DNA of 64,000 nucleotides, from positions 21,304 to 85,303 of the forward strand of contig JBKCGU010000042.1 in assembly GCA_046303055.1 (NCBI GenBank). Reading direction: 5' to 3'. This document shows, one piece after another, positions 1,347 through 62,502 of this stretch. The translations under genes and the position numbers were made by a program. The notes beneath the pieces were generated by a model. That model was not told where the DNA came from, did no database searches, and worked only from the letters and a program-made list of their open reading frames with translations. The stretch comes from Polaromonas sp. (lineage in GTDB: Bacteria > Pseudomonadota > Gammaproteobacteria > Burkholderiales > Burkholderiaceae_C). The stretch's first letter is position 1. Every line of letters begins with the position of its first letter.

Positions 1347-3305
1347 TTAAGACTTGTTTTGCAGGCTGTTGGCGAGTTCTTTGTAGCGCTGCATGGCCAG
1401 CGGGTCAGTGGCAGCGCGTCCAGCGAGCTCCTGCATTTCCTGCTGCCGTTTGATTTTGACGAGCTGGTCGATGATGCTGCGCACCTCGCTGAAGTCGCCT
1501 TCAATGCCCTCTGGGATTTGTGAGATCTGGGCAATCGCATGGGCTTCGTGCGCATGGCCGCGCAAGCCCTCGCGCAGGGCCGCCCAAGGCTGGGGGCCGT
1601 GGTCATGGAGCTGGCTCTCAGCCCAGGCGAACAAGGGGCCATGCGGGGCAGGCAGGGCGCACAGCAGGTGGTGCTCGTCGCTATCAAGCAAGTCCCAGCT
1701 TTGCGGCTCGGTCAGCAAAAACCGCAACACGCGGTCTTCCCGGCTGGCAGGATGCAGGCGGCCTGCCAGCCGGCGAGTGGTTTTGACAGGGGGGGCAACG
1801 GGTGCCGAAAAATACGGCTCCGAGCTCGAGTAATCCACCTCGTCGCTGCCGGGGTAGCCTGCGTCATCAGGGTAGCCTGAAAACGCGTCTGCGCCGCTGC
1901 TTTGTGCCGGTTTTGGCGACAATATCGGGCTGCCAGCCAATAAATACTTGAGTGGGTAGCTACTCTTTTTATAGCTGCCAGCCTTGCTTGCAGGTTGCCA
2001 CAGCTCCAGCAAGTCGCGCCCATCAATCAGCACCTTGTCGGCAATCTCAGCCAGCAGTTGGCGCTTGAGCGCGCCGTCGGGCAGCAGTGTCCATAGCGGC
2101 CTGGCGTTACTGGCCATGTGGGCTCGGCCTTCGGCGGTGTCCAGGTCGCAATCTTCTGCGGCGGCTTGCAGCATGAACTTACTCAGGGGCAGCGCCTTAG
2201 TCACCATATCGGCAAAGCCGTCTTTGCCGTGCTGGCGGATGTAGCTGTCGGGGTCATGCTCGGCGGGCAGAAATAAAAACTTGACGGTACGCACATCAGT
2301 CGCAAAGGGCAGGGCAGCATCGAGCGCTTTACGCGCCGCGCGGCGACCTGCGCCGTCACCGTCAAAGCTGAACACGACCGATTCGGTAAAGCGAAACAGC
2401 TTTTGCACATGCTCTGCGGTGCAGGCCGTGCCCAGCGTCGCCACGGCGTTGGCAAAGCCCATTTGCGCCAGCGCCACCACGTCCATGTAACCTTCGGTCA
2501 CCAGTGCGTAGCCGTGCTCGCGCAAAGCGGTGCGTGCTTCAAACAGGCCGTATAGTTCGCGCCCTTTGCTAAAAACGGGTGTTTCGGGTGAATTCAAATA
2601 CTTGGGCTTTTCGTCAGACAGCACCCGCCCACCAAAGCCAATGCATTCGCCCTTGACGTTGCGGATGGGGAACATCACGCGGTCGCGAAAACGGTCATAC
2701 CGTTTGGCCTCACCAGCAGCATTTTCTTCGTTAGGCTCACCCGTGATGACCAAACCGCTTTCCACCAGCAGCGGGTCGCTGTAGTCAGGAAAGACGCTGG
2801 CCAGGCTGCGCCAGCCTTCTGGCGCATAGCCCAGGCCAAAGGTTTTGGCAATTTCGCCCGACAGGCCGCGGCCTTTGAAGTAGTCAATCGCCTTGGGTGA
2901 GTTGCGCAGGGCCTTGATGTAGGCCATGCCGGCTCTTTCAAGCACGCTGGTCAAGGTGGCCTGCTGCTCGCGCATTTGCGCGGCTTTGGCCCGGTCTTGG
3001 GGAGACACATCGTCTTCAGGCACCTGCAGGCCGTATTGCTGGGCCAGGTCCTTCACGGCTTCAATAAACGTCATGCCGCCGTGGTCCATCAAAAAGCCGA
3101 TGGCGTTGCCGTTTTTGCCGCAGCCAAAGCAGTGGTAAAACTGCTTTGCGGGGCTGACACTGAACGATGGCGACTTTTCGCCATGAAAAGGGCACAGGCC
3201 CATGAAGTTGGCGCCGCCCTTTTTCAGCTGAACATAGCGGCCCACAATGTCGACCACGTCGGCGCGTGCCAGTAGCTCTTGAATAAAGGATTGTGGAATC
3301 GCCAT
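1347..3305 (-). CDS. dnaG: DNA primase
   Basis: Zn finger CPFHGEKSPSF...CFGCG, FRDRVMFPI, KYLNSPET, TOPRIM motifs EGYMDV and FDGDGAG. Confidence 0.98.
   Translation of the reverse strand: MAIPQSFIQELLARADVVDIVGRYVQLKKGGANFMGLCPFHGEKSPSFSVSPAKQFYHCFGCGKNGNAIGFLMDHGGMTFIEAVKDLAQQYGLQVPEDDVSPQDRAKAAQMREQQATLTSVLERAGMAYIKALRNSPKAIDYFKGRGLSGEIAKTFGLGYAPEGWRSLASVFPDYSDPLLVESGLVITGEPNEENAAGEAKRYDRFRDRVMFPIRNVKGECIGFGGRVLSDEKPKYLNSPETPVFSKGRELYGLFEARTALREHGYALVTEGYMDVVALAQMGFANAVATLGTACTAEHVQKLFRFTESVVFSFDGDGAGRRAARKALDAALPFATDVRTVKFLFLPAEHDPDSYIRQHGKDGFADMVTKALPLSKFMLQAAAEDCDLDTAEGRAHMASNARPLWTLLPDGALKRQLLAEIADKVLIDGRDLLELWQPASKAGSYKKSSYPLKYLLAGSPILSPKPAQSSGADAFSGYPDDAGYPGSDEVDYSSSEPYFSAPVAPPVKTTRRLAGRLHPASREDRVLRFLLTEPQSWDLLDSDEHHLLCALPAPHGPLFAWAESQLHDHGPQPWAALREGLRGHAHEAHAIAQISQIPEGIEGDFSEVRSIIDQLVKIKRQQEMQELAGRAATDPLAMQRYKELANSLQNKS
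1922..1975 (+). repeat. 54-bp dispersed element (family A), inside dnaG linker
   Basis: atatcgggctgccagccaataaatacttgagtgggtagctactctttttatagc; read antisense as SYKKSSYPLKYLLAGSPI in DnaG. Confidence 0.75.
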
Positions 3306-3348
3306 AACGCTATTTTGACCTGTCAGGTAGCTTGTGGTTCAGGCGGAG

Positions 3349-3386
3349 AAAAACCCGAAAAAAACCGAAAAAACCCCAAAAAAAAA
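3349..3386. other. Four phased A-tracts (~10-bp period) upstream of dnaG
   Basis: A-runs start at 3349, 3358, 3368 and 3378 (5, 7, 6 and 9 A), separated by C-rich spacers. Confidence 0.7.
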
Positions 3387-3407
3387 CCCGCACATGGCGG
3401 GCTTTTC
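3378..3407 (-). terminator. Rho-independent terminator, possibly bidirectional
   Basis: Stem cccgc-acatg-gcggg (3387-3401) with A9 on the left and cttttc on the right; follows the small ORF at 3425-3490. Confidence 0.75.
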
Positions 3408-3424
3408 AAATCCATCGAAGCAAC

Positions 3425-3490
3425 TTATTTGGCGGGTGCTTTTTTCGATGCTTTTTTGCTTTTCTTTGGTTTTGCGGTAGCGTTGTTCAT
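3425..3490 (-). CDS. Putative 21-aa Lys/Ala-rich micro-protein MNNATAKPKKSKKASKKAPAK
   Basis: Manual translation; gtgagacacc (weak SD) before the ATG, TAA stop, terminator ~20 bp downstream; below the ORF-track cutoff. Confidence 0.5.
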   Translation of the reverse strand: MNNATAKPKKSKKASKKAPAK

Positions 3491-3662
3491 GGTGTCTCAC
3501 TTGAGTTAAGGGGGGCGAATGACAACAACCAGGGGCTGCTGCGGACTCTTGTTACGCTATGGAACTGCTTCCAAGCTTGGCAAGTAGATTTTAAACGGCA
3601 CATCGGTGCGCATGGTTGACATCATTTGCTGATTTTTGTTATTTACCAACCCTTGTTGATGA

Positions 3663-7595: not shown

Positions 7596-8723
7596 TCACT
7601 TGCTGTTTTTCAGTTCTCGCGCTACTGCTTGCCCCAACTCAATGACCGCCATAGCGTAGTAGCTGCTCCAGTTGTAGCGGGTGATGGCGTAAAAGTTTTC
7701 TGTGCCTGCCACGTACTGCGGCGTGTCGGGGCCATTGAGCAGTTCGATCAGGGCCAGTGGGCCTGAATGCGCCAGCGCCAGACCCTCCAGCACAGCGCCT
7801 TTGGCGGTGAAGCTGGCTACGCTGAAGGTGGGCAGAATGTCTGGGGCCATCAGGGCGTCCATGTCCAGGCGGGTTTTGTCGAAGGTAACGGGGTAGTGGG
7901 TGGGCATGCCAGGCTGCCAGTTGAAGGCCTTGAAGTAGCTGGCAACCGAGCCAATCGCATCGGCGGGGCTGTTCCAAAGGTCAATCGTGCCGTCGCCGTC
8001 AAAGTCCACCGCGTACTTGGCAACACTGGAAGGCATGAACTGCGGCATGCCCATGGCGCCTGCAAAGCTGCCGCGCGGCTCAAGTGGGTCTGCGCTACGA
8101 CGGCTCTGCAGGGTCAAAAATTGTTCGACTTCACCTTTGAAAAATTCGCTGCGCTCTTTGGCGCGCGGGTGACTCGATGGGAAGTCAAAGGCCAGTGTTG
8201 TCAGGGCGTCCAGCACTCGAAAGCTTCCGGTGTCGCGACCATAGATGGTTTCAACGCCGATGATGCCGACGATGATGTCGATGGGTACGCCGTATTCTTT
8301 TTCGGCGCGCTCCAGCGTGGCTTGGTTAGCCTGCCAAAACCTCACGCCCGCAGCAATGCGGACCGGGTCAATAAAACGGCTGCGGTAAACACGCCAGTTT
8401 TTGACAAAGGGTTTGGCAGCCGGTTGCATCAGTTTGACGACCGTGGCGCTGTAGCGCGATTGACCGATGGCGCTCTTTACCCAAGCAGGATCCAAGTCGC
8501 GCCGGGCGGCCAGGTCTTCGGCAAACTGCATGACCTCTGGCCGGCTAGCGTACGGCGAGCCAGCGCTGTTGACTTGTATGGCTGCCTGCCCGGAGCTTGA
8601 AATAGACCGCTTTGAGGGATGTTTTTTAGAGTTGTTCGGGCCTTTAGCCCATGTATTAGCAGCGCAAGCAGCTCCTAAAAAAAGAGCAACTGAAACGCTG
8701 ACGACTTGCCTTGAAAATTTCAT
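7596..8723 (-). CDS. mltB: Lytic murein transglycosylase B
   Basis: IIGVETIYGR, GSFAGAMGMPQFMPSS, DFDGDG EF-hand-like loop, AITRYNWSSYYAMAV. Confidence 0.95.
   Translation of the reverse strand: MKFSRQVVSVSVALFLGAACAANTWAKGPNNSKKHPSKRSISSSGQAAIQVNSAGSPYASRPEVMQFAEDLAARRDLDPAWVKSAIGQSRYSATVVKLMQPAAKPFVKNWRVYRSRFIDPVRIAAGVRFWQANQATLERAEKEYGVPIDIIVGIIGVETIYGRDTGSFRVLDALTTLAFDFPSSHPRAKERSEFFKGEVEQFLTLQSRRSADPLEPRGSFAGAMGMPQFMPSSVAKYAVDFDGDGTIDLWNSPADAIGSVASYFKAFNWQPGMPTHYPVTFDKTRLDMDALMAPDILPTFSVASFTAKGAVLEGLALAHSGPLALIELLNGPDTPQYVAGTENFYAITRYNWSSYYAMAVIELGQAVARELKNSK
8634..8687 (+). repeat. 54-bp element (family A) encoding part of the MltB signal peptide
   Basis: gttcgggcctttagcccatgtattagcagcgcaagcagctcctaaaaaaagagc; antisense reads ALFLGAACAANTWAKGPN. 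Confidence 0.75.
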
Positions 8724-15926: not shown

Positions 15927-15980
15927 ACTATCTTTTCGATAGCTGTTCGCCCTTATATTCATTGGGTTAAAAGCCTATTT
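15927..15980 (-). repeat. 54-bp element (family A), intergenic
   Basis: Reverse complement aaataggcttttaacccaatgaatataagggcgaacagctatcgaaaagatagt. Confidence 0.8.
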
Positions 15981-17587: not shown

Positions 17588-17636
17588 TTTTAGGCCGCTT
17601 GCCTTGCAAGCAATAAAAGCCAAAAGAATCAAGAGC
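17588..17636 (+). repeat. Degenerate copy of family A element, upstream of smc
   Basis: tttaggccgcttgcc...aatcaagagc; the ends resemble the element but it is ~5 bp short. Confidence 0.4.
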
Positions 17637-21208: not shown

Positions 21209-24905
<3,697 letters not shown>

Positions 24906-24992
24906 ACCTAGAAAAAGCAGTTGGATGCGCCCGAGTGTTCATGCGGTCTGTGAGATGTTTACGAGCGGTCAACTGCTTTTTTTAGGTTTAAA

Positions 24993-27793: not shown

Positions 27794-28630
27794 TCAGGCA
27801 AGCACAGCTTCTTGCGTGCGGGATGGCGCGACAAAAGCAGGCAGCGCTGGGTAGCCTGCTGACAGCGTCAGCACCTCATAACCTGTCTCGGTGACCAGAA
27901 CCGTGTGCTCCCACTGCGCCGACAGCGAATGGTCACGGGTGACAATCGACCAGCCGTCTTTTTCCGGGCCGTCCTTGATATCGCGCTTGCCGGCGTTGAT
28001 CATCGGCTCAATCGTGAAAATCATGCCGGGCTTGAGCTCCTCCAGCGTGTCTGGCTTGCCGTAGTGCAGCACCTGGGGGTCTTCATGAAACTTCCGGCCA
28101 ATACCGTGGCCGCAAAACTCGCGCACGATGGAGAAGCCCTGTCGTTCGGCAAACTGCTGGATAGCAAAGCCAATGTCACCGAGCCGGATGCCGGGTTTGA
28201 CGCGCATGATGCCTTGCCACATGGCCTCGTAAGTGATGGTGCACAGGCGCTTGGCGGCAATCGAGCAATCGCCTACCAAAAACATGCGGCTGGTGTCGCC
28301 ATGCCAGCCGTCTTTGATCACTGTCACATCCACATTCACAATATCGCCTTTTTTGAGCGGCTTGTCATTGGGTATGCCGTGGCAAACCTGGTGGTTGACG
28401 GACGTGCAAAGTGACTTGGGGTAGGCCGCATAGCCCTGCGGCTGGTAGCCCAGCGTGGCCGGTATGGTGTGTTGCACCTGCGTCATGTAGTCGTGCGCCA
28501 GGCGGTCAATTTCATTGGTGGTCAGGCCGGGCTTGATGAAGGGCGTCAAGTAGTCGAGCACTTCAGAAGCCAGTTTGCCAGCCACCCGCATGCCTTCAAT
28601 GCCCGCTGCGTCTTTGTAGGTAATGGTCAT
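27794..28630 (-). CDS. map: Methionine aminopeptidase type I
   Basis: [45 protein letters not shown]. Confidence 0.98.
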
Positions 28631-28725
28631 GGTGGGATTATCCCACCGTCAAAGCCGCCCTGTACGGCATGGGTGCAAGGTTAAAATCAAGCTCTGCCCG
28701 CCAACAATCACCAGGCCACCACACC

Positions 28726-31700
28726 TTGACACTGCACTTGACTACTTTTGAGGGCGACAGCTCTACAAACGCTCCGATTTCCGCTCTCAGCGACTTTCGC
28801 GCCCTTCAGCTTTTACCCCAGCTGCAGGCTATTGATCACAAGATCGTGGGCATCAATGCCCGTTTTGTTCACTGGGTCGCCACCGAACAGCCCCCCAGTC
28901 CAGAAGAAAAAAGTCGCTTGGCTGCCTTGCTCAGCTATGGCGAGCCGTGCAAGGCGTTGGACGGTAAAAAGCTGGATGAGGCCGTGTTCATCGTCTCCCC
29001 CCGTTTGGGCACCGTGTCGCCCTGGGCCTCCAAAGCGACCGACATTGCACGCAACTGCGGTTTGGCGGTCAAACGTATTGAACGCATCACCGAATACCGC
29101 GTCGTGTTGAAGTCCGGCCTTTTTGGCAAAGCCGCCTTGACGAGCGAACAGCACCAGCAAGTGGCCGCGTTGCTGCACGACCGTATGACGGAGAGCGTGA
29201 TGACTGACCGCGCCCAGGCGGCGGCGCTGTTCACTGAGTTACAAGCCGCGCCTATGGCCAGCATCGACGTGCTGACCGGCGGTAAATCAGCACTAGAGAG
29301 GGCCAATACCGAGTTTGGCCTGGCGTTGGCGGTAGATGAAATTGATTACCTGGTCCATGCCTTCATCCAGCTCAAGCGCAACCCGACCGATGTTGAACTG
29401 ATGATGTTTGCCCAGGCCAATAGCGAACATTGCCGCCACAAAATTTTCAACGCCGACTTTACGATTGACGGTGTCGCGCAAGGCATCAGCCTGTTTGGCA
29501 TGATTCGCAACACCGAAAAGCGGCACCCGCAACACACGGTCGTGGCTTACTCGGACAACGCCTCCATCATGGAAGGCTCAAGAAGGCAGATTTTTACCGC
29601 AAAATCGCCAGTTTCAGGTGCCAAATCGGCCTCTAGCCCAAGCAATACCTGGGCGAGTAGCTCCCAAATCTATAGCGCGGCAAATGACGTGTTGACCCAC
29701 GTCCTGATGAAGGTCGAAACCCACAACCACCCGACAGCCATCTCGCCTTTCCCCGGTGCGTCCACTGGCGCAGGCGGCGAGATACGCGACGAAGGCGCCA
29801 CCGGCCGCGGCTCCAAACCCAAGGCGGGTTTGACCGGATTTACCGTCTCAAAGTTGTTTGGCAGCGACTACGGCAAGCCCGACCATATCGCCAGCCCGCT
29901 GCAAATCATGACCCAAGGCCCGCTCGGCGGGGCGGCTTTCAACAACGAATTTGGCCGCCCCAACCTGAACGGCTACTTTCGCGAATACGAACAAACTGCC
30001 CAAGGTCAGCGCTGGGGCTACCACAAGCCGATCATGATTGCGGGCGGTGTCGGCACGATTGACGCCGGCTTGACGAAGAAAATCCTGTTTCCGGCAGGTA
30101 CCTTGCTGATTCAGCTCGGCGGGCCGGGCATGCGGATTGGCATGGGCGGCAGCGCGGCCAGCTCGATGGCCACCGGAACCAATGCCGCGCAACTCGACTT
30201 TGACTCGGTGCAGCGCGGCAACCCCGAGATCGAGCGGCGTGCACAAGAGGTGATCAACCAGTGTGCACAGCAGGGTGCGGCCAACCCAATTCTGGCGATT
30301 CACGACGTCGGCGCGGGCGGCTTGTCCAACGCCTTTCCTGAATTGACGAACGATGCCGGGCGGGGCGCAAGGTTTGATTTGCGTGCCGTGCCGCTGGAAG
30401 AAAGCGGGCTGTCACCCAAAGAAATCTGGTCTAACGAAAGCCAGGAGCGCTATGTGATGGCGATTGCGCCTGAGTCCTTGCCGCAGTTCAAAGCATTTTG
30501 TGAGCGTGAGCGTTGCCCGTTTGCAGTGATTGGCGTGGCGACTGAGGAACGAAACCTGGTAGTCACCGACGGACAAGAATCTTCTCTTGACCAGCCGGGG
30601 CCGCGGAACCGGCTTAGCCGGGCCGCAGGCGCAGCGGCCCCCCCGGGGGGCAGCGAACCACACGAAGTGACAAGCGTGGGGGTACCAGTCAATATGCCAA
30701 TGGACGTACTGCTCGGCAAGCCGCCCAAAATGCACCGCGACGTCCGAACCGTCAAGCACAGCCTCAAACCCATCGACCTGGCCGGCATCGACCTGCAAAA
30801 AAGCGCGATCAACGTGCTCAGCCACCCCACAGTCGCGTCCAAACGCTTTTTAATCACCATCGGCGACCGCACGGTGGGTGGCCTCACGCACCGCGACCAG
30901 ATGGTGGGCCCGTGGCAAGTGCCGGTGGCCGACTGCGCCGTGACGCTGGCCGACTACCAGGGCTTTGCAGGCGAGGCCATGGCCATGGGCGAGCGCACGC
31001 CGCTGGCAGTCGTCAACGCTGCTGCGTCAGGCCGCATGGCTGTGGCCGAAGCCATCACCAACCTGCTGGCCGCGCCTATAGAGCTGCCACGCGTCAAGCT
31101 GTCGGCCAACTGGATGGCCGCTTGCGGCGAGCCTGGTCAGGACGCGGCGCTGTTTGAAACCGTCAAAGCCGTGGGTATGGAGCTGTGCCCCGCACTCGGC
31201 GTGTCAATTCCGGTCGGCAAGGATTCGCTGTCGATGCGCACCACCTGGAGGGATGGCACTGACAGCAAAAAAGTCACATCGCCCGTGTCATTGATCGTCA
31301 GCGCTTTCGCATCCCTGGCCGACGTACGCGGCACACTGACCCCGCAGCTGAACCGGGACGAGGCTGACACGACCCTGATTCTGATCGACCTGGGCAAAGG
31401 CCAGCACCGCATGGGCGGCAGTATTTTGGCGCAAACCCTCAACTGTGAAGACGGCCATGTGCCCGACCTCGACAACGCAAAAGACCTGATCAATCTCGTC
31501 AATGCCATCAACGCGCTGCGGGCCAAAAACCAGATCATGGCCTACCACGACCGTAGCGACGGCGGCCTGTTTGCCTGCATCTGTGAGATGGCCTTTGCTG
31601 GCAACGTTGGCGTGGCGTTGAACATCGACATGCTGCTGGTAGAAGGCGACGGCATCACCGACAGCCGCATGGAAGTGGGCGACAGCAAAAACTGGGCAAG

Positions 31701-32889: not shown

Positions 32890-33257
32890 GGTGTGGCGCG
32901 GGTCAAAACCAGCCACCGTTTTCATCCGTTTTCCGTTATCTCAACCAGGCGTCAGTGGGTGACTGGCGATCTTTGCTGATGCCGATACGCTGGTCAATGT
33001 TGACGTGGTGCGTTGACCAGCCCCGCCCTGAAGCGGCAAGGCCAATTTGTGATTTTGAAGCAAACGGTCACGACGTCGGCCAGAAAACTGCGCACCTACT
33101 CGACCAGGGAGACCGTCAACATGTTGGCGAGCATGGGGCGGCGCGCAACCATGGCGTTAAAGCAGCGCCAGGGCGTGGCGTTTTGGTATGCAGAGCGCCG
33201 GACTGACCCACGCCATGACCTGTGAAGCCCTTGTCAATTGCTATTGCTATTGCGATT

Positions 33258-33311
33258 GCTATTACTTCAGGAGCTTATAGCCCAAGCGTTCATTGGCTTG
33301 CAGGCTGATTT
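33258..33311 (-). repeat. 54-bp element (family A), intergenic
   Basis: Reverse complement aaatcagcctgcaagccaatgaacgcttgggctataagctcctgaagtaatagc. Confidence 0.85.
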
Positions 33312-33367
33312 GACGAATGAGAAATACAAAAAACCGAGTTTTGTAGCGTAATAACCGTCAAACCTTT

Positions 33368-36449: not shown

Positions 36450-37922
36450 TCAGGAGCTGCAGCTGATTTCAATGCCGCTGGCCCACTCTGGCGGAAAGCC
36501 AGCCAGCGCATCATGGTCAGCATGCTCATCAAATGGGGCTTGCAAGGTGTCTAACAAGGTGTGGATCTTTGAGTAGTCTTTGAGTTTCGCGGCGCGGATG
36601 GCTTCTTCGCCCAAATGGTTGCGCAACACGTATTTCGGGTTGCTTTTGAGCATCAAAATAGCTCTTGAATTGGCCTCCAGGCCAATAGATTCATGGGTTA
36701 ACAGCTCTGAATAGTGTAGCGCCCAGGCATTGAAGGATTCCCGGTCAAAAAACAAATCACGCAGTCGCTCATGCCCGCTTTGCGGGGTAAACGCACACAG
36801 TCGCCGCCAGAAAATGGTGTAGTCCACTTTGTTGTCGGCCAGCAGCTTGAAGGTGCTTTCAATCAGCGCGTTGGTGTCGGGTGTCGCCTGGATCAAGCCC
36901 AGTTTGGCGAGCATGTTGCCGCCCAGTGCAGCGGGGAAGATGGCTTTGTACGGCTCGAGCGCTGCCAGCGCCAGGTCTTGCTCGCCGATCAGCGGCAGCA
37001 GGGCTTGGCCCAAGCAAAACAAATTCCAGTAGCCGATGTTTGGCTGCTTGTTGTAGGCATAGCGGCCATGGGTGTCCGAATGGTTACAGATGTGAGTTGG
37101 GTCAAAAGCGTCCAGAAACTGGAACGGGCCGTAATCAATCGTCAACCCCAAAATACTCATGTTGTCGGTGTTCATCACGCCGTGGCAAAAGCCGACCGAT
37201 TGCCACGCCGCCATCAGGTGAGCGGTGCGTTCGCTCACGGCTTCAAGCAGCGCGGCGTAGGGGTTGGCCGCATCACGGCAGGCCGGGTAAAAGCTGTCGA
37301 TGACAAAGTCAGCCAGGGCTTTGAGCTCGACATGCCTATCGTTGTAGCTGAAGTGCTCAAAATGGCCAAAGCGGATAAAACTGGGCGCCGTGCGGGTGAC
37401 GACGGCGGCGGTTTCAATGTCTTCGCGCAACACTTTGGCGTCCGAGCCAGTCAGGCACAGCGCTCTGGTGGTCGGTATGCCCAGGCCGTGCATGGCTTCA
37501 GAGCATAAATATTCACGGATGGACGAACGCAGCACGGCCCGGCCATCGCCCATGCGGGAGTAGGGCGTTTTGCCAGCGCCTTTAAGCTGAACCTCCCGAC
37601 CGCCCGAAGGCGTGTCAAGTTCACCCAGCAAAATGGCCCTGCCATCGCCGAGCTGCCCCGCCCATTGGCCAAACTGGTGGCCGCTGTACACGCTGGCCAG
37701 CGGTTCGCTACCGCTCAGAACGCTGTTGCCGACCAAGGCATGCAATGCCTCATGCGATTCAAACCAGTCTGCTTCGAGGCCCAGTTCCCGCGCAACTGCC
37801 TGGTTGCGGCTGATCCAGTAGGGTGCAGGCAGCGCCTGGGGCCGCAAGCGGGTTGAAAAGTTCTCACCCAATCGGGCAAAGCGGTTGTTCCAGGCTAATG
37901 GTTGCGAGAGATCAGTCGTCAT
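36450..37922 (-). CDS. selO: Protein adenylyltransferase SelO (YdiU)
   Basis: [52 protein letters not shown]-terminal ISCSS. Confidence 0.96.
36667..36720 (+). repeat. 54-bp element (family A) inside selO
   Basis: gaattggcctccaggccaatagattcatgggttaacagctctgaatagtgtagc; antisense reads [18 protein letters not shown]. Confidence 0.8.
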
Positions 37923-44948: not shown

Positions 44949-45019
44949 AAGTCCATCACTCATGTCTCAATCGGGACAAAGCAGGCCTGTAAAGCCTTGC
45001 CAAGCCGTCCTACAATGCA

Positions 45020-45039
45020 AAAAGAACGGTCGTACTATT
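45020..45039. promoter_or_regulatory. Palindromic operator, FadP/TetR-like, upstream of the beta-oxidation operon
   Basis: AAAAGAACGGTCGTACTATT; 17/20 identical to the (reverse-complemented) site at 12193. Confidence 0.7.
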
Positions 45040-45135
45040 TTATGGTTCGCCAGATCGTTTCTGGCAGGCTCGCGAAAATCGGGCAACACAGAAAGCCGTC
45101 GTACTATTTTATGGTTCGCCAGATCGTTTCTGGCA
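45029..45135 (+). repeat. Perfect 38-bp direct repeat x2 with a 31-bp unique spacer
   Basis: gtcgtactattttatggttcgccagatcgtttctggca at 45029-45066 and 45098-45135; internal hairpin gccaga-tcgtt-tctggc. Confidence 0.9.
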
Positions 45136-48591: not shown

Positions 48592-50424
48592 ATGAACCTG
48601 CGATCAACCCTTGATTTTCTGCTGTACGACTGGCTGCAGGCCGAGTCTTTAAACCAGCGCGCACGTTTTTCTGACCACTCGCGGGAAACCTTTGATGCCG
48701 TTTTTGACACCTGCGAACGAATTGCGCGTGAAAAATACGCACCGTTCAACCGCCTGGTAGACACCCAGGAGCCGCACTTTGACGGGGAAAAAGTCATCTT
48801 GCCGCAGGCCACGCATGATGCGCAAAAGGCTTATGCCGAATCGGGCTTGCTCAGTGCCGCGCAAGACTACGATATGGGCGGCATGCAGCTGCCCTACACG
48901 GTGGAGGCGGCGGCCAATGCCTTTTTTGCAATGGCATCGGTCAGCATTGGCTCTGGCATGCTGACCACGGGCAATGCCAATTTGCTGATGGTGCACGGTA
49001 ACGAGTTGCAAAAAGAAGTCTTTGCCAAAAACGAATTTTCAGGACGCTTTTCAGGCACCATGTGTTTGAGCGAGCCGCAGGCGGGCTCGTCACTGAGCGA
49101 TGTCACCACGCGTGCTGTGCCAGATGGCGCTGACTTTGAGGCCGAGCCGCTGGGGGCGCGCTACCGCCTCAAGGGCAACAAGATGTGGATCTCGTCAGGC
49201 GAACACGAGTTGACCGACAACATCATTCATTTGGTGTTGGCCAAAATTCCTGGGCTTGACGGCAAATTGATTGCCGGCACGCGCGGCATTTCGCTGTTTA
49301 TCGTGCCCAAAAAACTGGTGAATACAAAAGGTGAGCTGACAGGCGTGCGCAACGACGTGGCCTTGGCGGGCCTGAATCACAAACTGGGCTGGCGCGGCAC
49401 CACCAACACGCTGCTGAATTTCGGCGAAGGCAAGTATCCGGTGGATGGCCAGGCGGGTGCTGTGGGTTATCTGGTCGGCAAGCCGCATGAGGGTTTGCGC
49501 TGCATGTTCCACATGATGAATGAAGCGCGCATTGGCGTGGGGATGGCGGCCACCATGCTGGGTATGGCGGGTTACCACGCCAGTCTTGATTACGCCAAGA
49601 ATCGCCCGCAGGGCAGGCCGATGGGGCCGAGCGGCAAAGATGCATCAGCGCCGCAAATCCGCATCATTGAACACGCTGACGTCAGGCGCATGCTGCTGGC
49701 GCAAAAGTCATATTGCGAAGGCGCTTTGGCGCTGGAGCTGTATTGCGCCCGGCTGGTCGATGAACAGCATACGGCTGAAGACCAGGCTGCTGACGACGCT
49801 CGAATGCTGCTGGAGGTGCTGACGCCGATTGCCAAAAGCTGGCCCAGTGAGTGGTGCCTGGAGGCCAACTCACTGGCGATTCAGGTGCACGGTGGTTACG
49901 GCTACACCCGCGACTTCCCCGTCGAGCAGTACTGGCGTGACAACCGGCTGAACATGATTCACGAAGGCACGCACGGTATTCAAGCCATGGACTTGCTCGG
50001 TCGCAAGGTGCTGATGGAAGGGGGCAGGGGGCTGGCGCTGCTGGCGGCGCGCATTGAGGCCACGATGGACAAAGCAGCCTCGTTTGCAGAACTCAAAATC
50101 CATGCCGACGCACTTGGCAAAGCCTGGCAAGCCGTGACCAGCGCCACCCAAGCGGCCTGGGCCACAGGCAATCCGCAAGACGCGCTGGCCAATGCCGTGC
50201 CCTACATGCAGGCCTTCGGCCACACCGTTCTGGGCTGGATCTGGCTGGATGTTGCCTGCGCATCGCTTGACCAATCTGCTACACATTCAATAGCTTCTCG
50301 TGCAGGAATTCAGGGCGCTTGCGCCTATTTTTACGCCTACGAGCTACCTAAGATAACAGCCTGGCTCGCGGTGGTTGAAAGCCGAAACCTGCTGTGTGCC
50401 AACTTGCCGGAGGAGGCGTTTTAA
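48592..50424 (+). CDS. Acyl-CoA dehydrogenase (long type)
   Basis: TMCLSEPQAGSSL, KMWISSGEH, QVHGGYGY, IHEGTHGIQ. Confidence 0.94.
   Translation: MNLRSTLDFLLYDWLQAESLNQRARFSDHSRETFDAVFDTCERIAREKYAPFNRLVDTQEPHFDGEKVILPQATHDAQKAYAESGLLSAAQDYDMGGMQLPYTVEAAANAFFAMASVSIGSGMLTTGNANLLMVHGNELQKEVFAKNEFSGRFSGTMCLSEPQAGSSLSDVTTRAVPDGADFEAEPLGARYRLKGNKMWISSGEHELTDNIIHLVLAKIPGLDGKLIAGTRGISLFIVPKKLVNTKGELTGVRNDVALAGLNHKLGWRGTTNTLLNFGEGKYPVDGQAGAVGYLVGKPHEGLRCMFHMMNEARIGVGMAATMLGMAGYHASLDYAKNRPQGRPMGPSGKDASAPQIRIIEHADVRRMLLAQKSYCEGALALELYCARLVDEQHTAEDQAADDARMLLEVLTPIAKSWPSEWCLEANSLAIQVHGGYGYTRDFPVEQYWRDNRLNMIHEGTHGIQAMDLLGRKVLMEGGRGLALLAARIEATMDKAASFAELKIHADALGKAWQAVTSATQAAWATGNPQDALANAVPYMQAFGHTVLGWIWLDVACASLDQSATHSIASRAGIQGACAYFYAYELPKITAWLAVVESRNLLCANLPEEAF
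50278..50331 (-). repeat. 54-bp element (family A) inside the acyl-CoA dehydrogenase C-terminus
   Basis: gctacacattcaatagcttctcgtgcaggaattcagggcgcttgcgcctatttt = ATHSIASRAGIQGACAYF; both ends match intergenic copies. Confidence 0.6.
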
Positions 50425-51478: not shown

Positions 51479-51564
51479 ACCCCACGGTCGCTCACTTCGT
51501 GTCGTTCTCTGCCCTGCGGCAGCGCCGCTGCGCCTGCTGCCCGGCAAAGCCGGCTCTGCGGCCC
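51479..51564 (+). repeat. ~86-bp GC-rich palindromic element (family B), intergenic
   Basis: accccacggtcgctcacttcgtgtcg...gccggctctgcggccc; 68/86 identical to the purL copy. Confidence 0.85.
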
Positions 51565-51609
51565 CTGCTTGAAAAGAGATTTCTCGCATGCCCACTTGGA
51601 ACTTGCATC

Positions 51610-52111: not shown

Positions 52112-52165
52112 AAATCGGCCTCCAAGCCAATGTATGTATACACAATGCGCTATCAAATTTGAAGC
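52112..52165 (+). repeat. 54-bp element (family A), intergenic
   Basis: aaatcggcctccaagccaatgtatgtatacacaatgcgctatcaaatttgaagc. Confidence 0.85.
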
Positions 52166-58240: not shown

Positions 58241-59215
58241 CTAAATATCGTCCAGTAGTGGGTAGGGCAGTGGCATCACAGTCAACGCCACGCCTTGTGT
58301 ACTACCCAAAGCCAGCTGACCATCTCCCACGGCGGATGTTCGCATCGACACGATGGCATCAAAACCACCTGACGGGTTGGCAGCGCTTGCCGCCACCAGG
58401 CCGCAGGGCTGTTCGGCATCAGATGAATGAAACACCTCTTGCCCCACAGACGGCTGGCCCATGCCATTGAGCGTGCCATGCACCAGGTAGGCACGGCGTT
58501 TTAAGGTGCCCCTGAACTGGCTGCGCGCCACCACTTCTTGGCCCGGGTAGCAGCCTTTTTTAAAGCTCACACCGCCCACCGACTCGTAGTTCAGCATCTG
58601 GGGCACAAAGGCTTCAAACAGGGCCTGCGTGACCATAGCAATGCCAGATTGCACTTCCAGCCACTGCCAGACGCTCAGGGCAAGTCGCTGGCCCGCCGGC
58701 GCCTGCGCACCCGCCGGAGCACAGCATAAAACCCGCCCAACACCGGCGCCAGGATACAAAAACACGGCATGTTGACCGTCAACATCGCGCTTTGACCAAT
58801 GAGTACCTGAGCGATTAGCTCATGAATCAATAGCGTCTGCCACATCGCCCACCAGGCCAAAAAGTACAAAATCGCTGCTGGCATCGCTCAGCTTGACCTT
58901 GGCGCGCATCACAAACATGCTCAGACGTTTGAGCGTCTGGGTCAGGATGTCCGCACTGCACACCAGCAAAAACTCTTCCTCGTCTCCGTCATTTTTGCGT
59001 TTGAACAGCACAAAGCTGGCCTGCATGCGCCCTTTGGCATTACAAAAGGCTGCCAAACGGGCGGTGGCCAGTCCCATATTCAGCACATCTTGCGTCAGTT
59101 GGCCTTGTAAAAATGCGGCGGCATCCGGGCCTACAGCACGTATCACGCCCAAATGATTCAGCTCTGCAATGCCTGAAATCGTTTGCGCGGGTGGGGTGGG
59201 GGCAGTTATCGTCAT
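58241..59215 (-). pseudogene. ygfZ: Folate-binding Fe-S/tRNA-modification protein YgfZ, interrupted by an in-frame TGA (58820-58822)
   Basis: LQGQLTQD, CNAKGRM and KKGCYPGQEVVAR motifs; the two track ORFs share one frame, separated by a single TGA. Confidence 0.85.
58781..58834 (+). repeat. 54-bp element (family A) inside ygfZ, carries the stop codon
   Basis: aacatcgcgctttgaccaatgagtacctgagcgattagctcatgaatcaatagc; antisense reads AIDS*ANRSGTHWSKRDV. Confidence 0.75.
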
Positions 59216-59274: not shown

Positions 59275-60282
59275 GTGGTGCGTGCTTTTACAAGATTGCT
59301 GATGGTTGCCGTGCTGCTGACCGGTATGGCGTTGGCTGCTGGCGGCTGGTGGCTGCACAGCCCCATGACACTGAATTTGCTGGCGGGCAGCCCGGTGCTT
59401 GATCTGGAGATAGAACCCGGCACGCGTCCCGCGCAGGTTGCCCAAGCGGTGGTGACCAGCGGTGCGCAGACGCCTGTGCAACTGCTGCAATTGTGGTTTC
59501 GCGTCTCGGGCCAGGCCCGGCAAATCAAGGCGGGCAGCTACGAAATCACACCCGGCATGACGCCGCGCAAGCTGCTGGCCATGCTGGTACGCGGCGATCA
59601 AACCCTCAAAAGCATCACCCTGGTGGAAGGCTGGAACTTCCGGCAAGTACGCGAAGCGCTACAAAAAGCAGAGCTGCTCGCCCAAGATTCTATTGGCCTG
59701 CAGCCCGAAATGATCATGGAAAAGCTGGGCAGGCCAGGCGTTCACCCCGAGGGACGCTTCTTTCCTGACACCTACACCTATGCCAAAGGCTCAAGCGATC
59801 TGGCCATCCTCAAGCGCGCCGCCAAGGCCATGGACAAACGACTGGAAGCCGCCTGGGCCTTGCGCCGGCTGGACACGCCCTTGACATCACCCGAACAAGC
59901 CTTGACCTTGGCAAGCATTGTTGAAAAAGAAACCGGCAAACCTTCAGACCGGGGGCAAATTGCCGGCGTTTTTGCCAATCGGCTGCGAATTGGCATGCTG
60001 TTGCAAACCGACCCAACGGTGATTTACGGGATGGGTGACAAGTTTGACGGCAACATCAGAAAGCGGGATTTGCAAACCGACACACCCTACAACACCTACA
60101 CCCGCGCTGGCCTGCCGCCCACGCCCATCGCCATGCCTGGCAAGGCCGCCCTGCTGGCTGCGGTGCAGCCGGCAGCGACCAAGGCGCTGTATTTTGTGGC
60201 GCGCGGGGACGGCAGCAGCCAGTTCAGCGCCACGCTTGACGAGCACAACCGTGCCGTCAACAAATACATTCGGGGCCAGTAA
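59275..60282 (+). CDS. mltG: Endolytic transglycosylase MltG
   Basis: EGRFFPDTY, LASIVEKET, LQTDPTVIYG, YNTY...GLPPTPIA. Confidence 0.97.
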   Translation: MVRAFTRLLMVAVLLTGMALAAGGWWLHSPMTLNLLAGSPVLDLEIEPGTRPAQVAQAVVTSGAQTPVQLLQLWFRVSGQARQIKAGSYEITPGMTPRKLLAMLVRGDQTLKSITLVEGWNFRQVREALQKAELLAQDSIGLQPEMIMEKLGRPGVHPEGRFFPDTYTYAKGSSDLAILKRAAKAMDKRLEAAWALRRLDTPLTSPEQALTLASIVEKETGKPSDRGQIAGVFANRLRIGMLLQTDPTVIYGMGDKFDGNIRKRDLQTDTPYNTYTRAGLPPTPIAMPGKAALLAAVQPAATKALYFVARGDGSSQFSATLDEHNRAVNKYIRGQ

Positions 60283-60930: not shown

Positions 60931-61988
60931 ACAACGGTAACGGCGTTTTGGCCCCCTGGCTGCAAACCCAGCTGGAAAGCCTGCTCAATCAGCGCGGCCA
61001 CGCCTGGCTGCTGGCGGGCCCCTCAGGTTTGGGGCAGTTTGACCTGGCTCTCGCGTTAGCACGCGCCTGGCTGTGTGAAACCCCCACGCCGCAAGGCGCT
61101 TGCCGCTCATGCGGCAGTTGCCACGCCGTCGATGTGCATACCCATGCCGATCTGGCGGTGCTGATGCCCGAGCTGCTGTCTCTGGAGCTCGGCTGGCCCC
61201 TGGATAAAAAGACGCAGGACGAGCTGGACAGCAAAAAACGCAAACCCAGTAAAGAAATCAAGGTCGATGCCGCACGTGAAGTCGTGTCTTTCACCCAGTT
61301 CACCCGCTCACGTGGCTCGACCAAAGTGGTGCTTGTCTTTCCGGCCGAGCGCATGAACGGCATCACGGCCAACACGCTGCTCAAAACGCTGGAAGAGCCA
61401 CCCGGCGCGGTCAAATTCATTCTGGCCACCGAGGCAGCGCACCACTTGCTACCCACCGTCCGCAGCCGTTGCCTGAGCCACACCATGGCTTGGCCGGGCT
61501 TTGACGAGGCACTGGCGTGGCTGCTGGCAAGCCACGACCAGGGGCAGGGCGCTGACAAAAAACCAAGCAAACCGCTGTCGTCCGCTGATTTGAAAACGCT
61601 GCTCACCGCCGCCGGTGGCCGCCCGGCCGATGCACTGGCCTGGATACAAAGTGGTCAGGCAGCAGCGCTTGCACAAAGCTGGCAAGCACTGCCCAAAGCC
61701 ATGGCCAAGGGTGACGTGACCGCTATCAGCAACCTGTTGCCATCACAGGCCGTCGACGCCCTGCAAAAGCTTTGCCATGATGTGTGGTCTGTCCGGGTTG
61801 GCGCTTCTCCCCGGTTTTTCAGCCTGGCTGACCTCCCATCATCGCCCGCCAAAGCGGGCACCTTAGGCCTGGCGGCCTGGGCTAGAGAACTGGCCAGCAC
61901 GGCGCGCTCTGTTGAACATCCCTATAACCCCGGTTTGATGCTGGAGTCCCTGACTAGCCGGGCCAAGATTGGGCTGAACTCAAAATAG
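60927..61988 (+). CDS. holB: DNA polymerase III delta' subunit
   Basis: [16 protein letters not shown] Zn module, [20 protein letters not shown]. Confidence 0.95.
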
Positions 61989-62034
61989 GCGATTTCACTA
62001 CACGCCCAGATGGCCAAACCGATAAACTAGCCCC

Positions 62035-62445
62035 ATGAGCGCCAACCCACCCGCCAGCACGCCCCAAGCCAACGCACCTTCAAGCGCAACTTCCGGCGCT
62101 TCAACTGCCCGGCCCAGCGTCGTCCAATTAGCCATCAAGGAAAAAGCGGCGCTGTATGCCGCCTATGTTTCGTTGTTCAAGGAAGGTGGCGTGTTTTTCC
62201 CTACCGCGCGTGAGTACGAGCTTGGTGCTGACGTTTACTTGCTGTTAACGCTGCCCGATGACGCGCAGCGTTATCCGGTGGCGGGCAAGGTCGCCTGGGT
62301 TACACCGGCCGAAGCCTCAGGCAACCGCACGCAGGGCATCGGGGTGCGGTTCCCGAATGACGAGAAATCGCGCCTGCTGAAACTCAAAATAGAAGGCATT
62401 CTGGGCGCGCATCTGGCATCAGAACGGCCAACCCAGACCATTTAA
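62035..62445 (+). CDS. pilZ: PilZ domain type IV pilus protein
   Basis: ALYAAY...GGVFFPT, GKVAWVTP, GIGVRF, ERPTQTI; holB-pilZ-tatD synteny. Confidence 0.92.
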   Translation: MSANPPASTPQANAPSSATSGASTARPSVVQLAIKEKAALYAAYVSLFKEGGVFFPTAREYELGADVYLLLTLPDDAQRYPVAGKVAWVTPAEASGNRTQGIGVRFPNDEKSRLLKLKIEGILGAHLASERPTQTI

Positions 62446-62448
62446 ACT

Positions 62449-62502
62449 GCTACTTATTTAATAGCTATCAGCGCATATTATTATTGGCTTATAGCCATAT
62501 TT
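62449..62502 (-). repeat. 54-bp element (family A), intergenic
   Basis: Reverse complement aaatatggctataagccaataataatatgcgctgatagctattaaataagtagc. Confidence 0.85.

Follow-up and report, generated by a model that had tools for sequence, protein, structure and literature searches.

The DNA uptake signal sequences of Pasteurellaceae (USS) and Neisseriaceae (DUS) are family-restricted and over-represented, and are found in both orientations, between genes as well as inside them, where the copies fall in several frames and in the less constrained segments of the proteins. They hold an exact core of 9–12 bp and reach a density of approximately one per kb. HIP1 of cyanobacteria (GCGATCGC), an 8-bp perfect palindrome that occurs about once per kb, is largely located in genes, where it evolves in place; its conservation at orthologous positions exceeds the neutral expectation. 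Rickettsia palindromic elements (RPEs) are palindromic insertions of 100–150 bp that add residues to the proteins that receive them. REPs lie outside genes and form imperfect palindromes whose head, GTAG, is conserved; they flank the Y1 transposase gene that mobilises them.

The stretch of DNA analysed here (64 kb, hereafter the window) comes from a freshwater Polaromonas-like bacterium and holds a 54-bp motif in twelve gapless copies, seven on the plus strand and five on the minus strand, about half of the motif copies being located inside essential genes (Table 1). An earlier note on this DNA had listed eleven of them, all of which were found again at the same coordinates, and had missed the twelfth, on the minus strand in mltG. 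A profile built from those eleven copies scores the twelve at 30–44 bits and the runner-up match at 8 bits. With an iterated model, the copies in the window reach at least 16.4 bits, compared to a noise of at most 8.4 bits, and nothing rises above that noise near 17588 and 63355, where degenerate copies had been proposed. All twelve copies are recovered by leave-one-out (E from 2.5e-11 to 1.7e-3 for the 64-kb window), the one in mltB being the weakest, and the right-half pattern GCTMYNNWWNNNRTAGC lies well above shuffle level, with 11 matches, at eight known copies, compared to 0.07 expected. The motif is defined by its primary sequence, with approximately 48 bits over 54 bp, sharp ends (AAAT...TAGC), and blocks at fixed spacing: AAAT-GCCT-AGCCC-(variable centre)-TGCGC-A-AGCTAY-AAW-RTAGC. 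The fixed length reported before is exact, every copy aligning to the model without gaps. Neither Rfam nor the literature searched yielded a match to it.

Table 1. Copies of the 54-bp motif in the window, with profile scores and leave-one-out E values.
Copy	Position	Strand	Score	Leave-one-out E
dnaG	1922..1975	+	34.8 bits (nhmmer)	8.9e-7
mltB 5' end (SLT_2 family)	8634..8687	+	30.2 bits	1.7e-3
Intergenic	15927..15980	-	32.3 bits	1.9e-6
ligA	23109..23162	+	32.3 bits	8.6e-6
purL	29623..29676	+	44.0 bits, highest of all copies	
Intergenic	33258..33311	-	40.5 bits	5.3e-9
selO	36667..36720	+	37.3 bits	
Acyl-CoA dehydrogenase (Pfam)	50278..50331	-	30.6 bits	5.1e-5
Intergenic	52112..52165	+	31.3 bits	1e-3
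ygfZ	58781..58834	+	32.5 bits; 16.4 bits with iterated model	
mltG (YceG family)	59658..59711	-	37.2 bits	1.1e-8
Intergenic	62449..62502	-	30.1 bits	7.4e-6

The earlier estimate of one per 5–6 kb holds: the window averages one copy per 5.3 kb, and an extended sequence of 82 kb contains 14 copies. Six of these 14 copies are intergenic, compared to 11% expected (p = 0.002), and they are spaced more regularly than chance predicts (CV 0.61, P = 0.038), which is weak evidence with 14 points. Their pairwise identity ranges from 43 to 74% (median 57%), with no indels, and since copies in one genome are no closer than this, no recent transposition burst has taken place. Judging by the copies compared, each genome has its own dialect of the motif: CCAAT at positions 16–20 is present in 10 of 14 copies here and in 3 of 38 elsewhere (Fisher p = 1.4e-5), whereas GTGGA-like centres are found in 0 of 14 and 15 of 38, respectively. 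Among 80 Burkholderiales genome loci, and likewise among plasmids, matches are limited to Comamonadaceae, and their density peaks in the closest relatives, with a GC content of 53–59%. The motif is carried by a Rhodoferax plasmid and by phage contigs of matching GC, including sequences for large phage polyvalent proteins; several of these contigs have a near-identical motif centre in common. In an accessory plasmid of 32 kb, where toxin-antitoxin and IS genes abound, 7–10 copies are located in intergenic DNA. In agreement with the earlier note, no mobilising enzyme was seen among the genes checked, all of which are housekeeping.

Among the intergenic copies, the one at 15927 lies between an acyl-CoA dehydrogenase gene (ending at 15914) and a nitronate monooxygenase-like gene (starting at 16016; Pfam NMO), and the one at 52112 between ORFs that end at 52062 and start at 52218. 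The copy at 33258 is flanked by the convergent purL and a solute-binding protein gene, and one metatranscriptome contig (run X5), representing RNA or carried-over DNA, spans 33116–33376. The copy at 62449, between a pilZ-domain gene (ending at 62445) and tatD (starting at 62538), is matched by hits at the corresponding offset from mltG in loci L128 and L131, and close to that position in L147. The window also contains a distinct repeat family, GC-rich and REP-like (30583–30670 and 51492–51579).

The coding copies use five of the six reading frames, as had been claimed for a smaller set: +1 (purL), +2 (ligA), −1 (mltB, acyl-CoA dehydrogenase, and ygfZ), −2 (selO and mltG), and −3 (dnaG). Open frames per copy are no commoner than in shuffles (2.48 vs. 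2.56). The copy in ligA, read in the sense direction as 18 residues, aligns without gaps to LigA from E. coli (2owo) and to 19 Burkholderiales orthologues. Its residues G-F-P-V...L...A-E-L-I-A are conserved, rare codons such as TTA and ATA make the motif, and the site retains GCTCCTGAATTAATAGC in Polaromonas-like relatives but reads GCGGCGGAGCTCATCGCC in high-GC relatives. The copy in mltG, read antisense as ALQKAELLAQDSIGLQPEM, aligns without gaps to the solved MltG (8yq7), and its segment exhibits no indels across 26 orthologues. Judged from these alignments, the ligA copy is native LigA sequence with no insert, and the mltG copy is native MltG sequence. By PWM score, the orthologous 54-mers of mltG form three bands (+26 to +46; −18 to −35; roughly −36 to −73). 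Three of the four outgroups lie at background, roughly −40 to −73, with a window mean of −68; this gradation may correspond to a gain in place or to the erosion of an ancestral motif.

In dnaG (minus strand), the motif is read antisense as SYKKSSYPLKYLLAGSPI, in the linker past the DnaB-binding domain, and the segment is present without gaps in all 11 DnaG homologues (80–95% identity), with YK(K/N)(S/N)SY conserved. In selO (minus strand), it is read antisense as 19 residues, in a segment that differs in length by one residue from SelO of P. syringae (6eac) and by 0–5 codons among orthologues. This copy is orthologous in loci L002, L039, and L005, with the rare Leu codon CTA supplying TAGC, and in the window 15 extra nt lie directly outside its left end. 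In ygfZ (GCV_T fold, minus strand), where the motif is read antisense as AIDS(G)ANRSGTHWSKRDV, the segment comprises 32 residues in nearly all of approximately 70 orthologues, motif or not, and GCTAT-N8-ATAGCT is kept at the DNA level in many Comamonadaceae. The A at 58822 in the window creates an in-frame TGA in this copy; the position is C in the public source contig and in DNA run X1, and the gene is intact because C gives GGA. In the acyl-CoA dehydrogenase (610 residues, with an Acyl-CoA_dh_C domain), the motif is read antisense as ATHSIASRAGIQGACAYF, and no indel is found in the 11 of 11 aligned homologues, which at 88–95% identity are too close to show its origin. The copy in mltB, taken as coding in the earlier note, is so only if translation starts at the ATG at 8723, in which case it encodes a signal peptide and a lipobox-like stretch, ALFLGAACAANTWAKGPN; with the publicly called start at 8531, it lies approximately 100 nt upstream and is noncoding. 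Pfam SLT_2 covers residues 61–365 of the 375-residue ORF, and the public gene call has 311 residues.

Synonymous-codon identity is higher in the motif than the gene mean in ligA (0.69 vs. 0.57), purL (0.72 vs. 0.60), and selO (0.78 vs. 0.65), values in the top 2–7% of sliding windows, and relatives carry the motif at the coding sites through rare AT-rich codons. By this measure, the motif is under constraint at the DNA level. The proposal that the element colonises core genes by insertion does not agree with five of the six informative coding copies (mltG, ligA, ygfZ, selO, and dnaG), where the difference in length is at most a few codons; it survives for purL, the only coding sites that appear to behave as sequence gains.

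The purL copy of the window is read in the sense direction as 18 residues in a variable surface loop and corresponds to 18 gap positions in the comparison with PurL from Salmonella (1t3t). It is immediately preceded by 21 extra nt (29602–29622) that partially repeat the left end, and the last 10 of them are identical to the flank of a non-orthologous copy in locus L001, which hints at copy-and-paste. Other genera besides Polaromonas and Acidovorax also carry the motif at this site in their DNA, and from Polaromonas to Acidovorax it is recognisable at the DNA level even though the protein loop there can vary freely; motif-less relatives are 4–8 residues shorter than motif-bearing ones. The orthologous purL copies in L041 and L010, compared to that of the window, follow the dialect of their own genome. 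In the PurL linker, the motif has been gained independently in five lineages, with +21 to +54 nt, and its ends are partly made of native codons, although the gain of 54 nt in L022 resembles a clean addition of the whole unit. Other in-frame repeat inserts are tolerated in purL and an acyl-CoA dehydrogenase in the same clade.

That the copies resemble one another by chance, or reflect only the base composition of AT-rich patches in a genome of 58% GC, is practically out of the question: all that speaks for it is how modestly the weakest copies (8634, 52112, and 58781) score, and it is refuted by the leave-one-out recovery, the bimodal distribution of the scores, and the pattern counts. In addition, a 36-bit pattern matched only known copies in 1.77 Mb (the window and 80 genome loci). 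It is very improbable that the motif is a structured element, either of the REP/RAYT type or a small RNA, with a hairpin of ssDNA or RNA being what is recognised. Good hairpins do exist in L098 at 2196 and in L125 at 14641, with central stems of 8–10 bp in the same register; pairing is possible for G14-C32, C15-G31, and C17-G29; and one intergenic copy lies within an RNA contig. However, folding energies are no better than those of shuffles in nine of ten copies (z-scores of +1.0 to −2.3, mostly near 0), no pair covaries in 38–48 independent copies (p = 0.77 for the central stem), C16 is opposite C30 in 31 of 48 copies, and some copies are oriented with transcription and others against it. The folding and covariation results, together with that from Rfam, largely refute this explanation. 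From the "hairpin plus palindrome" layout described before, the conserved sequence blocks are retained, but neither a folding signal nor covariation accompanies them, and the comparison with RPEs and REP/RAYT systems fails structurally because no palindrome is conserved.

Two other explanations rely on copying. The motif could be a non-autonomous mobile element, similar to MITEs or RPEs, with a 54-bp unit inserted by an enzyme encoded elsewhere; its 18-codon length would let copies in tolerant parts of genes survive and be translated, and present-day copies would be old insertions. The sharp ends, fixed length, and information content are in line with this unlikely scenario, as are the 54-nt addition in L022 and the five independent gains in the PurL linker, the gap positions relative to Salmonella, the presence of copies on the accessory plasmid and within genes for large polyvalent proteins of phages, the subfamilies with a common centre, and the tolerance of the clade to other in-frame repeats. 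Contrary to it, most informative coding copies are within a few codons of their orthologues, those in mltG and ligA being collinear residue by residue; terminal inverted repeats and target-site duplications are absent from 38 independent copies; copies of this genome are at most 74% identical; the net gains in the PurL linker vary; open frames stay at shuffle level; and no transposase is present in the 82 kb. Furthermore, old orthologous copies keep their rare codons and follow the dialect of their genome, as inert insertions would not. Alternatively, and quite improbably, a dispersed repeat would be spread and homogenised by templated overwriting, where abundant ssDNA or cDNA, or ectopic short-patch gene conversion, rewrites copies and partly similar native sequences, adding bases or replacing an equal length. 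This would account for both equal-length replacements and variable-length gains, for dialects common to orthologous and non-orthologous copies, for the left extension in purL matching the L001 flank, and for the high information retained without recent bursts. Nevertheless, in ligA and mltG the motif is mixed with native residues at the scale of single codons rather than forming contiguous tracts, the identity of approximately 57% between copies is far under the usual need of homologous recombination, and no reverse transcriptase or retron-like gene is found in the window. We know of no precedent for such an overwriting system.

The explanation favoured here, with about even confidence, is that the 54-bp sequence is no transposon but a DNA recognition motif specific to the Comamonadaceae lineage (Polaromonas, Rhodoferax, and relatives); between the two earlier suggestions, a protein-binding DNA motif fits better than a mobile repeat. 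To the observed family, with its boundaries, copies in native coding sequence, positional conservation, dialects, and taxonomic range, it adds a protein that would read the motif, and the role of that protein. A directional genome-wide pressure would keep approximately one copy per 5–6 kb, with copies arising and persisting mainly in place. Intergenic copies would evolve freely, and those in genes would be formed by synonymous and conservative substitutions, plus short indels in tolerant loops or linkers. Five reading frames would be used, and protein length usually left unchanged, because in-gene copies would form mainly by substitution in place. The likeliest pressure would be a putative sequence-specific protein that preferentially handles motif-bearing DNA, the specificity of which would co-evolve with its sites and give rise to the genome dialects; maintenance could be due to selection or molecular drive. 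Of the known precedents, the molecular drive that underlies DNA uptake signal sequences fits best; the same sequence pattern would result if the copies were selected as binding sites of a nucleoid-organising or recombination protein. On the other hand, high information and sharp ends would be equally expected from the descent of a copied unit, the plasmid copies and the shared phage centre are easier to obtain by copying than by independent point mutation, and some gains (the 54 nt in L022 and the 18 gap positions in purL) look like whole-unit additions. Moreover, the ~48 bits over 54 bp far exceed what any known uptake signal or ordinary binding site requires.

Like USS and DUS, the motif is family-restricted, highly over-represented, and present in both orientations, between genes and inside them, in several frames and less constrained protein segments. 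It also seems to form in place without changes in protein length, dictating codon and residue choices, and exhibits positions conserved in orthologues, dialects that differ between lineages, fairly regular spacing, and an alternation of GC-rich with AT-rich blocks. Unlike them, it extends over 54 bp instead of a 9–12 bp core, its copies are loose rather than exact, it is less dense, some copies have added as much as 54 nt to their site, and an accessory plasmid and phage contigs are rich in it. The literature searched held nothing relevant on competence or uptake bias in these bacteria. With HIP1, the motif shares hyper-abundance, location in genes, in-place evolution, orthologous conservation, and a reader that is only putative, but it is long, asymmetric, and degenerate. 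The purL loop and linker copies resemble RPEs as in-frame translated short repeats at conserved orthologous sites in tolerant surface regions; however, the motif holds no conserved palindrome, the majority of testable coding copies lengthen the protein little or not at all, and there is neither sequence similarity nor taxonomic overlap. REP/BIME and REPIN-RAYT systems are similarly frequent (hundreds of copies, ~1 per several kb) and likewise scattered over the genome in either orientation, with protein binding possible, whereas half of the motif copies are coding, the hairpin is not conserved, and no RAYT gene is found among the genes checked in the 82 kb. The motif thus looks like a new long genomic recognition signal rather than an ordinary mobile repeat.

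All eleven 54-mers listed in the earlier note lie where it had placed them and align without gaps. A profile built from them finds 12 matches in the window at 30-44 bits, with the next match at 8 bits, and the count of 11 has to be raised to 12 by a minus-strand copy in mltG, which a repeat search also paired with the selO copy. Leave-one-out profiles recover 12/12 copies (E 2.5e-11 to 1.7e-3), and a model iterated on related loci scores the 12 copies at 16.4 bits or more and everything else in the window at 8.4 bits or less; under this model, the degenerate copies previously reported near 17588 and 63355 do not rise above noise. The right-half pattern alone yields 11 matches, against 0.07 expected, all of them inside known copies, while a 36-bit pattern matches only known copies in the 1.77 Mb formed by the window and the 80 genome loci. 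No solo half-sites were found in the window. With 12 copies against approximately none expected, seven on the plus and five on the minus strand, the motif is over-represented, and the existence of a 54-bp motif family is confirmed, with corrections to its first description.

Positions in the window of the motif copies (start positions, except for the mltG copy) and of the other features discussed
Feature	Position	Strand	Gene or setting
Motif copy	1922		dnaG
Motif copy	8634		mltB
Motif copy	15927		intergenic
Motif copy	23109		ligA
Motif copy	29623		purL
Motif copy	33258		intergenic
Motif copy	36667		selO
Motif copy	50278		acyl-CoA dehydrogenase gene
Motif copy	52112		intergenic
Motif copy	58781		ygfZ
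Motif copy	59658-59711	minus	mltG
Motif copy	62449		intergenic
mltB, start ambiguous	7596-8723		375-aa ORF
Acyl-CoA dehydrogenase gene	48592-50424
GC-rich repeat, ~90-100 nt	30583-30670		within purL
GC-rich repeat, ~90-100 nt, inverted	51492-51579
Long terminator-like inverted repeat	24911-24992		downstream of the peptide deformylase gene
49-nt direct repeat, two units	45018-45066 and 45087-45135		just upstream of a 699-aa ORF starting at 45182
PYLIS_2 match (Rfam)	28558-28662	minus	just upstream of purL

The logo of 38 non-orthologous copies holds approximately 48 bits per motif, distributed over conserved blocks at positions 1-4 (AAAT), 7-10 (GCCT), 13-17 (AGCCC), 28-32 (TGCGC), 34 (A), 37-42 (AGCTAY), 45-47 (AAW), and 50-54 (RTAGC). 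Information drops sharply at either end of the motif, and the 10-nt flanks of these copies show only a weak common bias on the left (TTyAnGnnyC) and no direct repeat indicative of target-site duplication. Terminal inverted repeats are also missing, the left end AAATCGGCC being unrelated to the reverse complement of the right end, GCTATTAAT, and there is no inverted symmetry in the logo of these independent copies. The layout of a hairpin followed by a palindrome, proposed from the sequence alone, finds no support as a structure. The RNA folding of 10 copies gives z-scores near 0, no better than shuffles; neither all-against-all pairing nor the mutual-information matrix reveals nested covarying pairs; and a scan of the whole window with Rfam 15 (E <= 1) places no match on any copy. 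A central stem (positions 13-33 to 20-26), prompted by two copies with a perfect stem, was rejected (p = 0.77), and the folding and covariation tests together largely exclude a structured RNA or a REP-type element. Adenine-specific variability, like that of DGRs, does not fit the logo on inspection, as many adenines are invariant, and an unusual freedom from stop codons was rejected as well (2.48 open frames per copy vs 2.56 in shuffles). The sole Rfam match in the window, to PYLIS_2, is sub-threshold (26.3 bits vs a gathering score of 36; E = 0.05) and most likely due to chance.

The gene names originally assigned to the copies are borne out, as is their use of several reading frames: eight copies overlap ORFs, in 5/6 frames, and seven or eight of the 12 are coding. 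The copy in mltB counts as coding only under translation from the upstream ATG, in which case it encodes the signal-peptide-like N-terminus of the 375-aa ORF; under the public gene call (311 aa), the protein starts downstream of the copy, has no signal peptide, and its SLT_2 match is four residues shorter. The ygfZ copy contains an in-frame TGA in the window, with A at 58822, whereas both the source contig (ENA ERZ19569098 scaffold_27, via L211) and a DNA run (X1) read C at this position, and the gene is therefore intact. Splicing or bypass of coding copies, for which this TGA had been the apparent support, was thus discarded, since it proved to be a single-base difference between the window and the contig and reads. 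The coverage of the metatranscriptome runs is so sparse that it reaches no coding copy, and they show no skip of 54 nt.

The first account described the coding copies as colonising core genes, and the key comparison, that with orthologues, speaks against this view for most of them: no indel is seen in mltG, ligA, or ygfZ, and the difference in selO and dnaG is a few codons at most. In mltG, the 54-mer is native coding sequence: 26 orthologues across the Burkholderiales are collinear without indels, the alignment to a solved MltG is gapless, and the peptide AL.KAE.L.PD..GL.PE.IMEKLG is conserved with or without the DNA motif. The weight-matrix scores (PWM) of the orthologous 54-mers are graded: motif-bearing genomes reach +26 to +46, close relatives that lack the motif -18 to -35 (near the 99.9th percentile of background), and outgroups about -36 to -73, with a background mean of -68. 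A distant MltG orthologue at position 1206 of locus L169 (68% identical) holds a copy with a PWM of +45.6, which occupies the same codons but is in the other sequence variant, or dialect, of the motif (AGCCCTCGTGTATCGGGCACGAGCTGCTC). Either the copy has long been retained while its dialect changed, or it formed independently at this site.

Similarly, ligA aligns without gaps to E. coli and 19 orthologues, and its residues A-P-E-L-I-A are spelled GCTCCTGAATTAATAGC in Polaromonas-like genomes vs GCGGCGGAGCTCATCGCC in high-GC relatives. The corresponding segment of YgfZ has 32 residues in nearly all of ~70 orthologues, and GCTAT-N8-ATAGCT is kept in the DNA while the peptide varies (AIESIA, AIKKLA, AINTVA, and others). 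SelO differs by one residue in length from a Pseudomonas protein, and the TAGC of the motif is supplied by the rare Leu codon CTA. The dnaG segment is present and ungapped in homologues of 80% identity and above. As to the copy in the acyl-CoA dehydrogenase gene, paralogues are too distant and close homologues too similar to inform on its origin.

An in-frame gain of peptide is seen for purL and not for mltG, ligA, ygfZ, selO, or dnaG, and purL alone behaves in this way. Its loop copy corresponds to 18 gap positions relative to Salmonella, with motif-less relatives 4-8 residues shorter at this site than motif-bearing ones. In the interdomain linker, five lineages have independently gained copies, with net gains of +21, +33, +39, +39, and +54 nt and motif ends built in part from native codons. 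The purL loop copy is recognisable in nucleotides from Polaromonas to Acidovorax, despite a freely variable peptide, and within the motif, synonymous-codon identity ranks among the highest 2-7% of windows for ligA, purL, and selO. Both are signs of a pressure that still acts on the DNA sequence.

The 14 copies of this genome, that is, the 12 in the window and two in flanking sequence, are only 43-74% identical in pairwise comparisons, so that no burst has occurred recently, yet all of them are free of indels. Dialects differ between genomes: CCAAT at positions 16-20 is present in 10/14 copies here vs 3/38 elsewhere (p = 1.4e-5). The centre CGTGGAAT.TGCGCAAGCAGCTA, characteristic of Rhodoferax as well as of several metagenomic genomes and of phage contigs, is absent here. 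Orthologous purL copies carry the dialect of their own genome. A DnaA-box-like centre occurs in one dialect only, with 6/8 positions matching.

The DNA belongs to a 91-kb contig of a freshwater metagenome and comes from a Polaromonas-like member of the Comamonadaceae, whose PurL is 80-81% identical to that of Polaromonas and whose acyl-CoA dehydrogenase is ~90% identical to proteins named Polaromonas. Over 82 kb of this genome, intergenic copies are in excess (6/14 vs 11% expected, p = 0.002), and the spacing of copies between -3477 (in the flanking sequence L207) and 66330 (in the flanking sequence L210) is somewhat even, with a CV of 0.61 vs 0.94 for random placement (P = 0.038, with only 14 points). 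Seven consecutive copies (-3477, 1922, 8634, 15927, 23109, 29623, and 36667) lie 5.4-7.3 kb apart, so that the placement is suggestive of regularity.

Among 80 Burkholderiales genome loci, the motif is found in Comamonadaceae only. In 80 metagenomic loci collected via MltG, most of the closest relatives (GC 53-59%) have 1.5-5.7 copies per 10 kb, in comparison with 0-0.7 per 10 kb for the majority of relatives whose GC content is 64-70%. All plasmid matches are also from Comamonadaceae, including a 32-kb Rhodoferax antarcticus plasmid with 7-10 copies, mostly intergenic, and a transposon-rich region of the OS-4 plasmid, where a single copy in 50 kb offers little basis for spacing statistics. 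Copies are also present on eleven IMG/VR contigs (GC 53-66%), for the most part within very large ORFs and in sense frame +2; three of the five ORFs tested have Pfam matches, namely to polyvalent protein (LPD38, ART-PolyVal, LPD1), InPase, and AAA_25.

Other repeats are present in the region. A second, GC-rich family has two copies in the window, the arms of which are 83% complementary over 88 nt, and is multi-copy, given an assembly depth 20-30 times baseline. The copy within purL forms an in-frame insert of 36 aa, also found in the related locus L006 and partly in L041 and L064. Homologues of the acyl-CoA dehydrogenase that are 86-91% identical bear other in-frame inserts: exactly +18 aa in two of them (P0095 and P0103; SPHPNPFPQAGEGEKRSV), a type of peptide encoded by GC-rich REP-like hairpins, and about +26 to +28 aa in three others (P0012, P0117, and P0088; KAPTLRADASFLPPEGARFALGRPGG). 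In this clade, conserved enzymes generally seem to accommodate inserts derived from repeats. The terminator-like inverted repeat (AACCTAGAAAAAGCAGTTG...CAACTGCTTTTTTTAGGTT) shows raised depth and several alternative joins in metagenome contigs and thus probably represents a further dispersed repeat. The two units of the tandem-like direct repeat are 90% identical, with a spacing of 69 nt.

Compared with described repeats, the motif appears to lie outside the MITE, RPE (Rickettsia palindromic element), and REP families. Unlike MITEs, it has neither terminal inverted repeats nor target-site duplications, no two copies in this genome exceed 74% identity, as near-identical young copies would, and instead of insertions facing empty orthologous sites, only the purL sites show gains, which vary from 21 to 54 nt. 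No cognate transposase is encoded in the 82 kb examined, where all other genes checked are housekeeping genes, in agreement with the earlier note on the absence of a mobilising enzyme, and neither the window nor the 18 kb of sequence extending it revealed a RAYT (Y1 transposase) gene. RPEs form a stable palindromic hairpin, whereas the fold z-scores of the motif are ~0 without covariation; REP/REPIN sequences are extragenic imperfect palindromes with a conserved tetranucleotide head, whereas 7-8/12 copies of the motif are coding and lack a conserved stem. A simple mobile insert is an inadequate explanation, in view of the high-scoring native coding copies, the graded scores of orthologous sites, the tracking of dialects at old sites, and the variable net gains, together with the lack of young copies, inverted repeats, duplications, and, in the 82 kb examined, an enzyme. 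Of the two readings initially offered, a protein-binding motif fits these data better and a mobile repeat less well. Nevertheless, some evidence points to real copying events, namely a clean +54 gain in the related locus L022, the copies on plasmids and phages, and a 21-nt left extension in purL, the last 10 nt of which match the flank of another copy. For this reason, both a mobile element and a process of templated overwriting are retained as less likely rivals.

The pattern agrees with that of DNA uptake signals (USS/DUS) and of words of the HIP1 type (the cyanobacterial iterated palindrome). Driven by selection or molecular drive, such motifs build up at existing sites, in either orientation and in several frames; they shape the proteome, form family-specific dialects, and are fairly evenly spaced. 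Like uptake signals, the motif is strongly over-represented in both orientations in a single bacterial family (Comamonadaceae loci and plasmids), and most of its testable in-gene copies arise in place, in several frames and without indels. The two differ widely in that USS/DUS have an exact core of 9-12 bp at ~1 per kb, whereas the motif is a degenerate sequence of 54 bp and ~48 bits found once per 5-6 kb. By this analogy, it seems to work most like a genome-wide motif of the uptake-signal type, in logic and not in form. A literature search returned no described equivalent and nothing on uptake signals in Comamonadaceae, and the motif appears to be an undescribed, family-wide feature. To our knowledge, every genome-wide motif so far described as evolving in place is a short word (USS, DUS, HIP1, Chi).

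It is possible, although on balance somewhat doubtful, that the motif represents an undescribed class of signal: an asymmetric 54-bp, ~48-bit sequence written family-wide into chromosomes, plasmids, and phages every ~5-6 kb, which remodels essential genes in place, in their codons and even in their residues, and whose dialects co-evolve with a putative reader. If this reader were a machine for DNA uptake or self-recognition, the known uptake-signal systems would number three, with this one as the first whose signal is long and composite; if it instead wrote the sequence, for example by templated rewriting, sequences would be spreading by a new mechanism.

Through the motif, genes acquire local AT-rich patches of rare codons and unrelated proteins acquire convergent peptides, which could pass for insertions, horizontal transfer, or homology in annotation and phylogenetics. 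Its profile serves as a sharp taxonomic marker and might also help to assign phage and plasmid contigs to Comamonadaceae hosts. If the reading as a signal is true, the DNA ligase, primase, MltG, and PurL of common freshwater and soil bacteria would bear a second layer of DNA information that limits codon choice and even amino-acid sequence. This composite example would also widen the class of motifs that evolve in place and point to a putative DNA-reading protein, which may control how Comamonadaceae take up DNA, tell self from non-self, or organise their chromosomes, and thereby gene flow in environmental communities.
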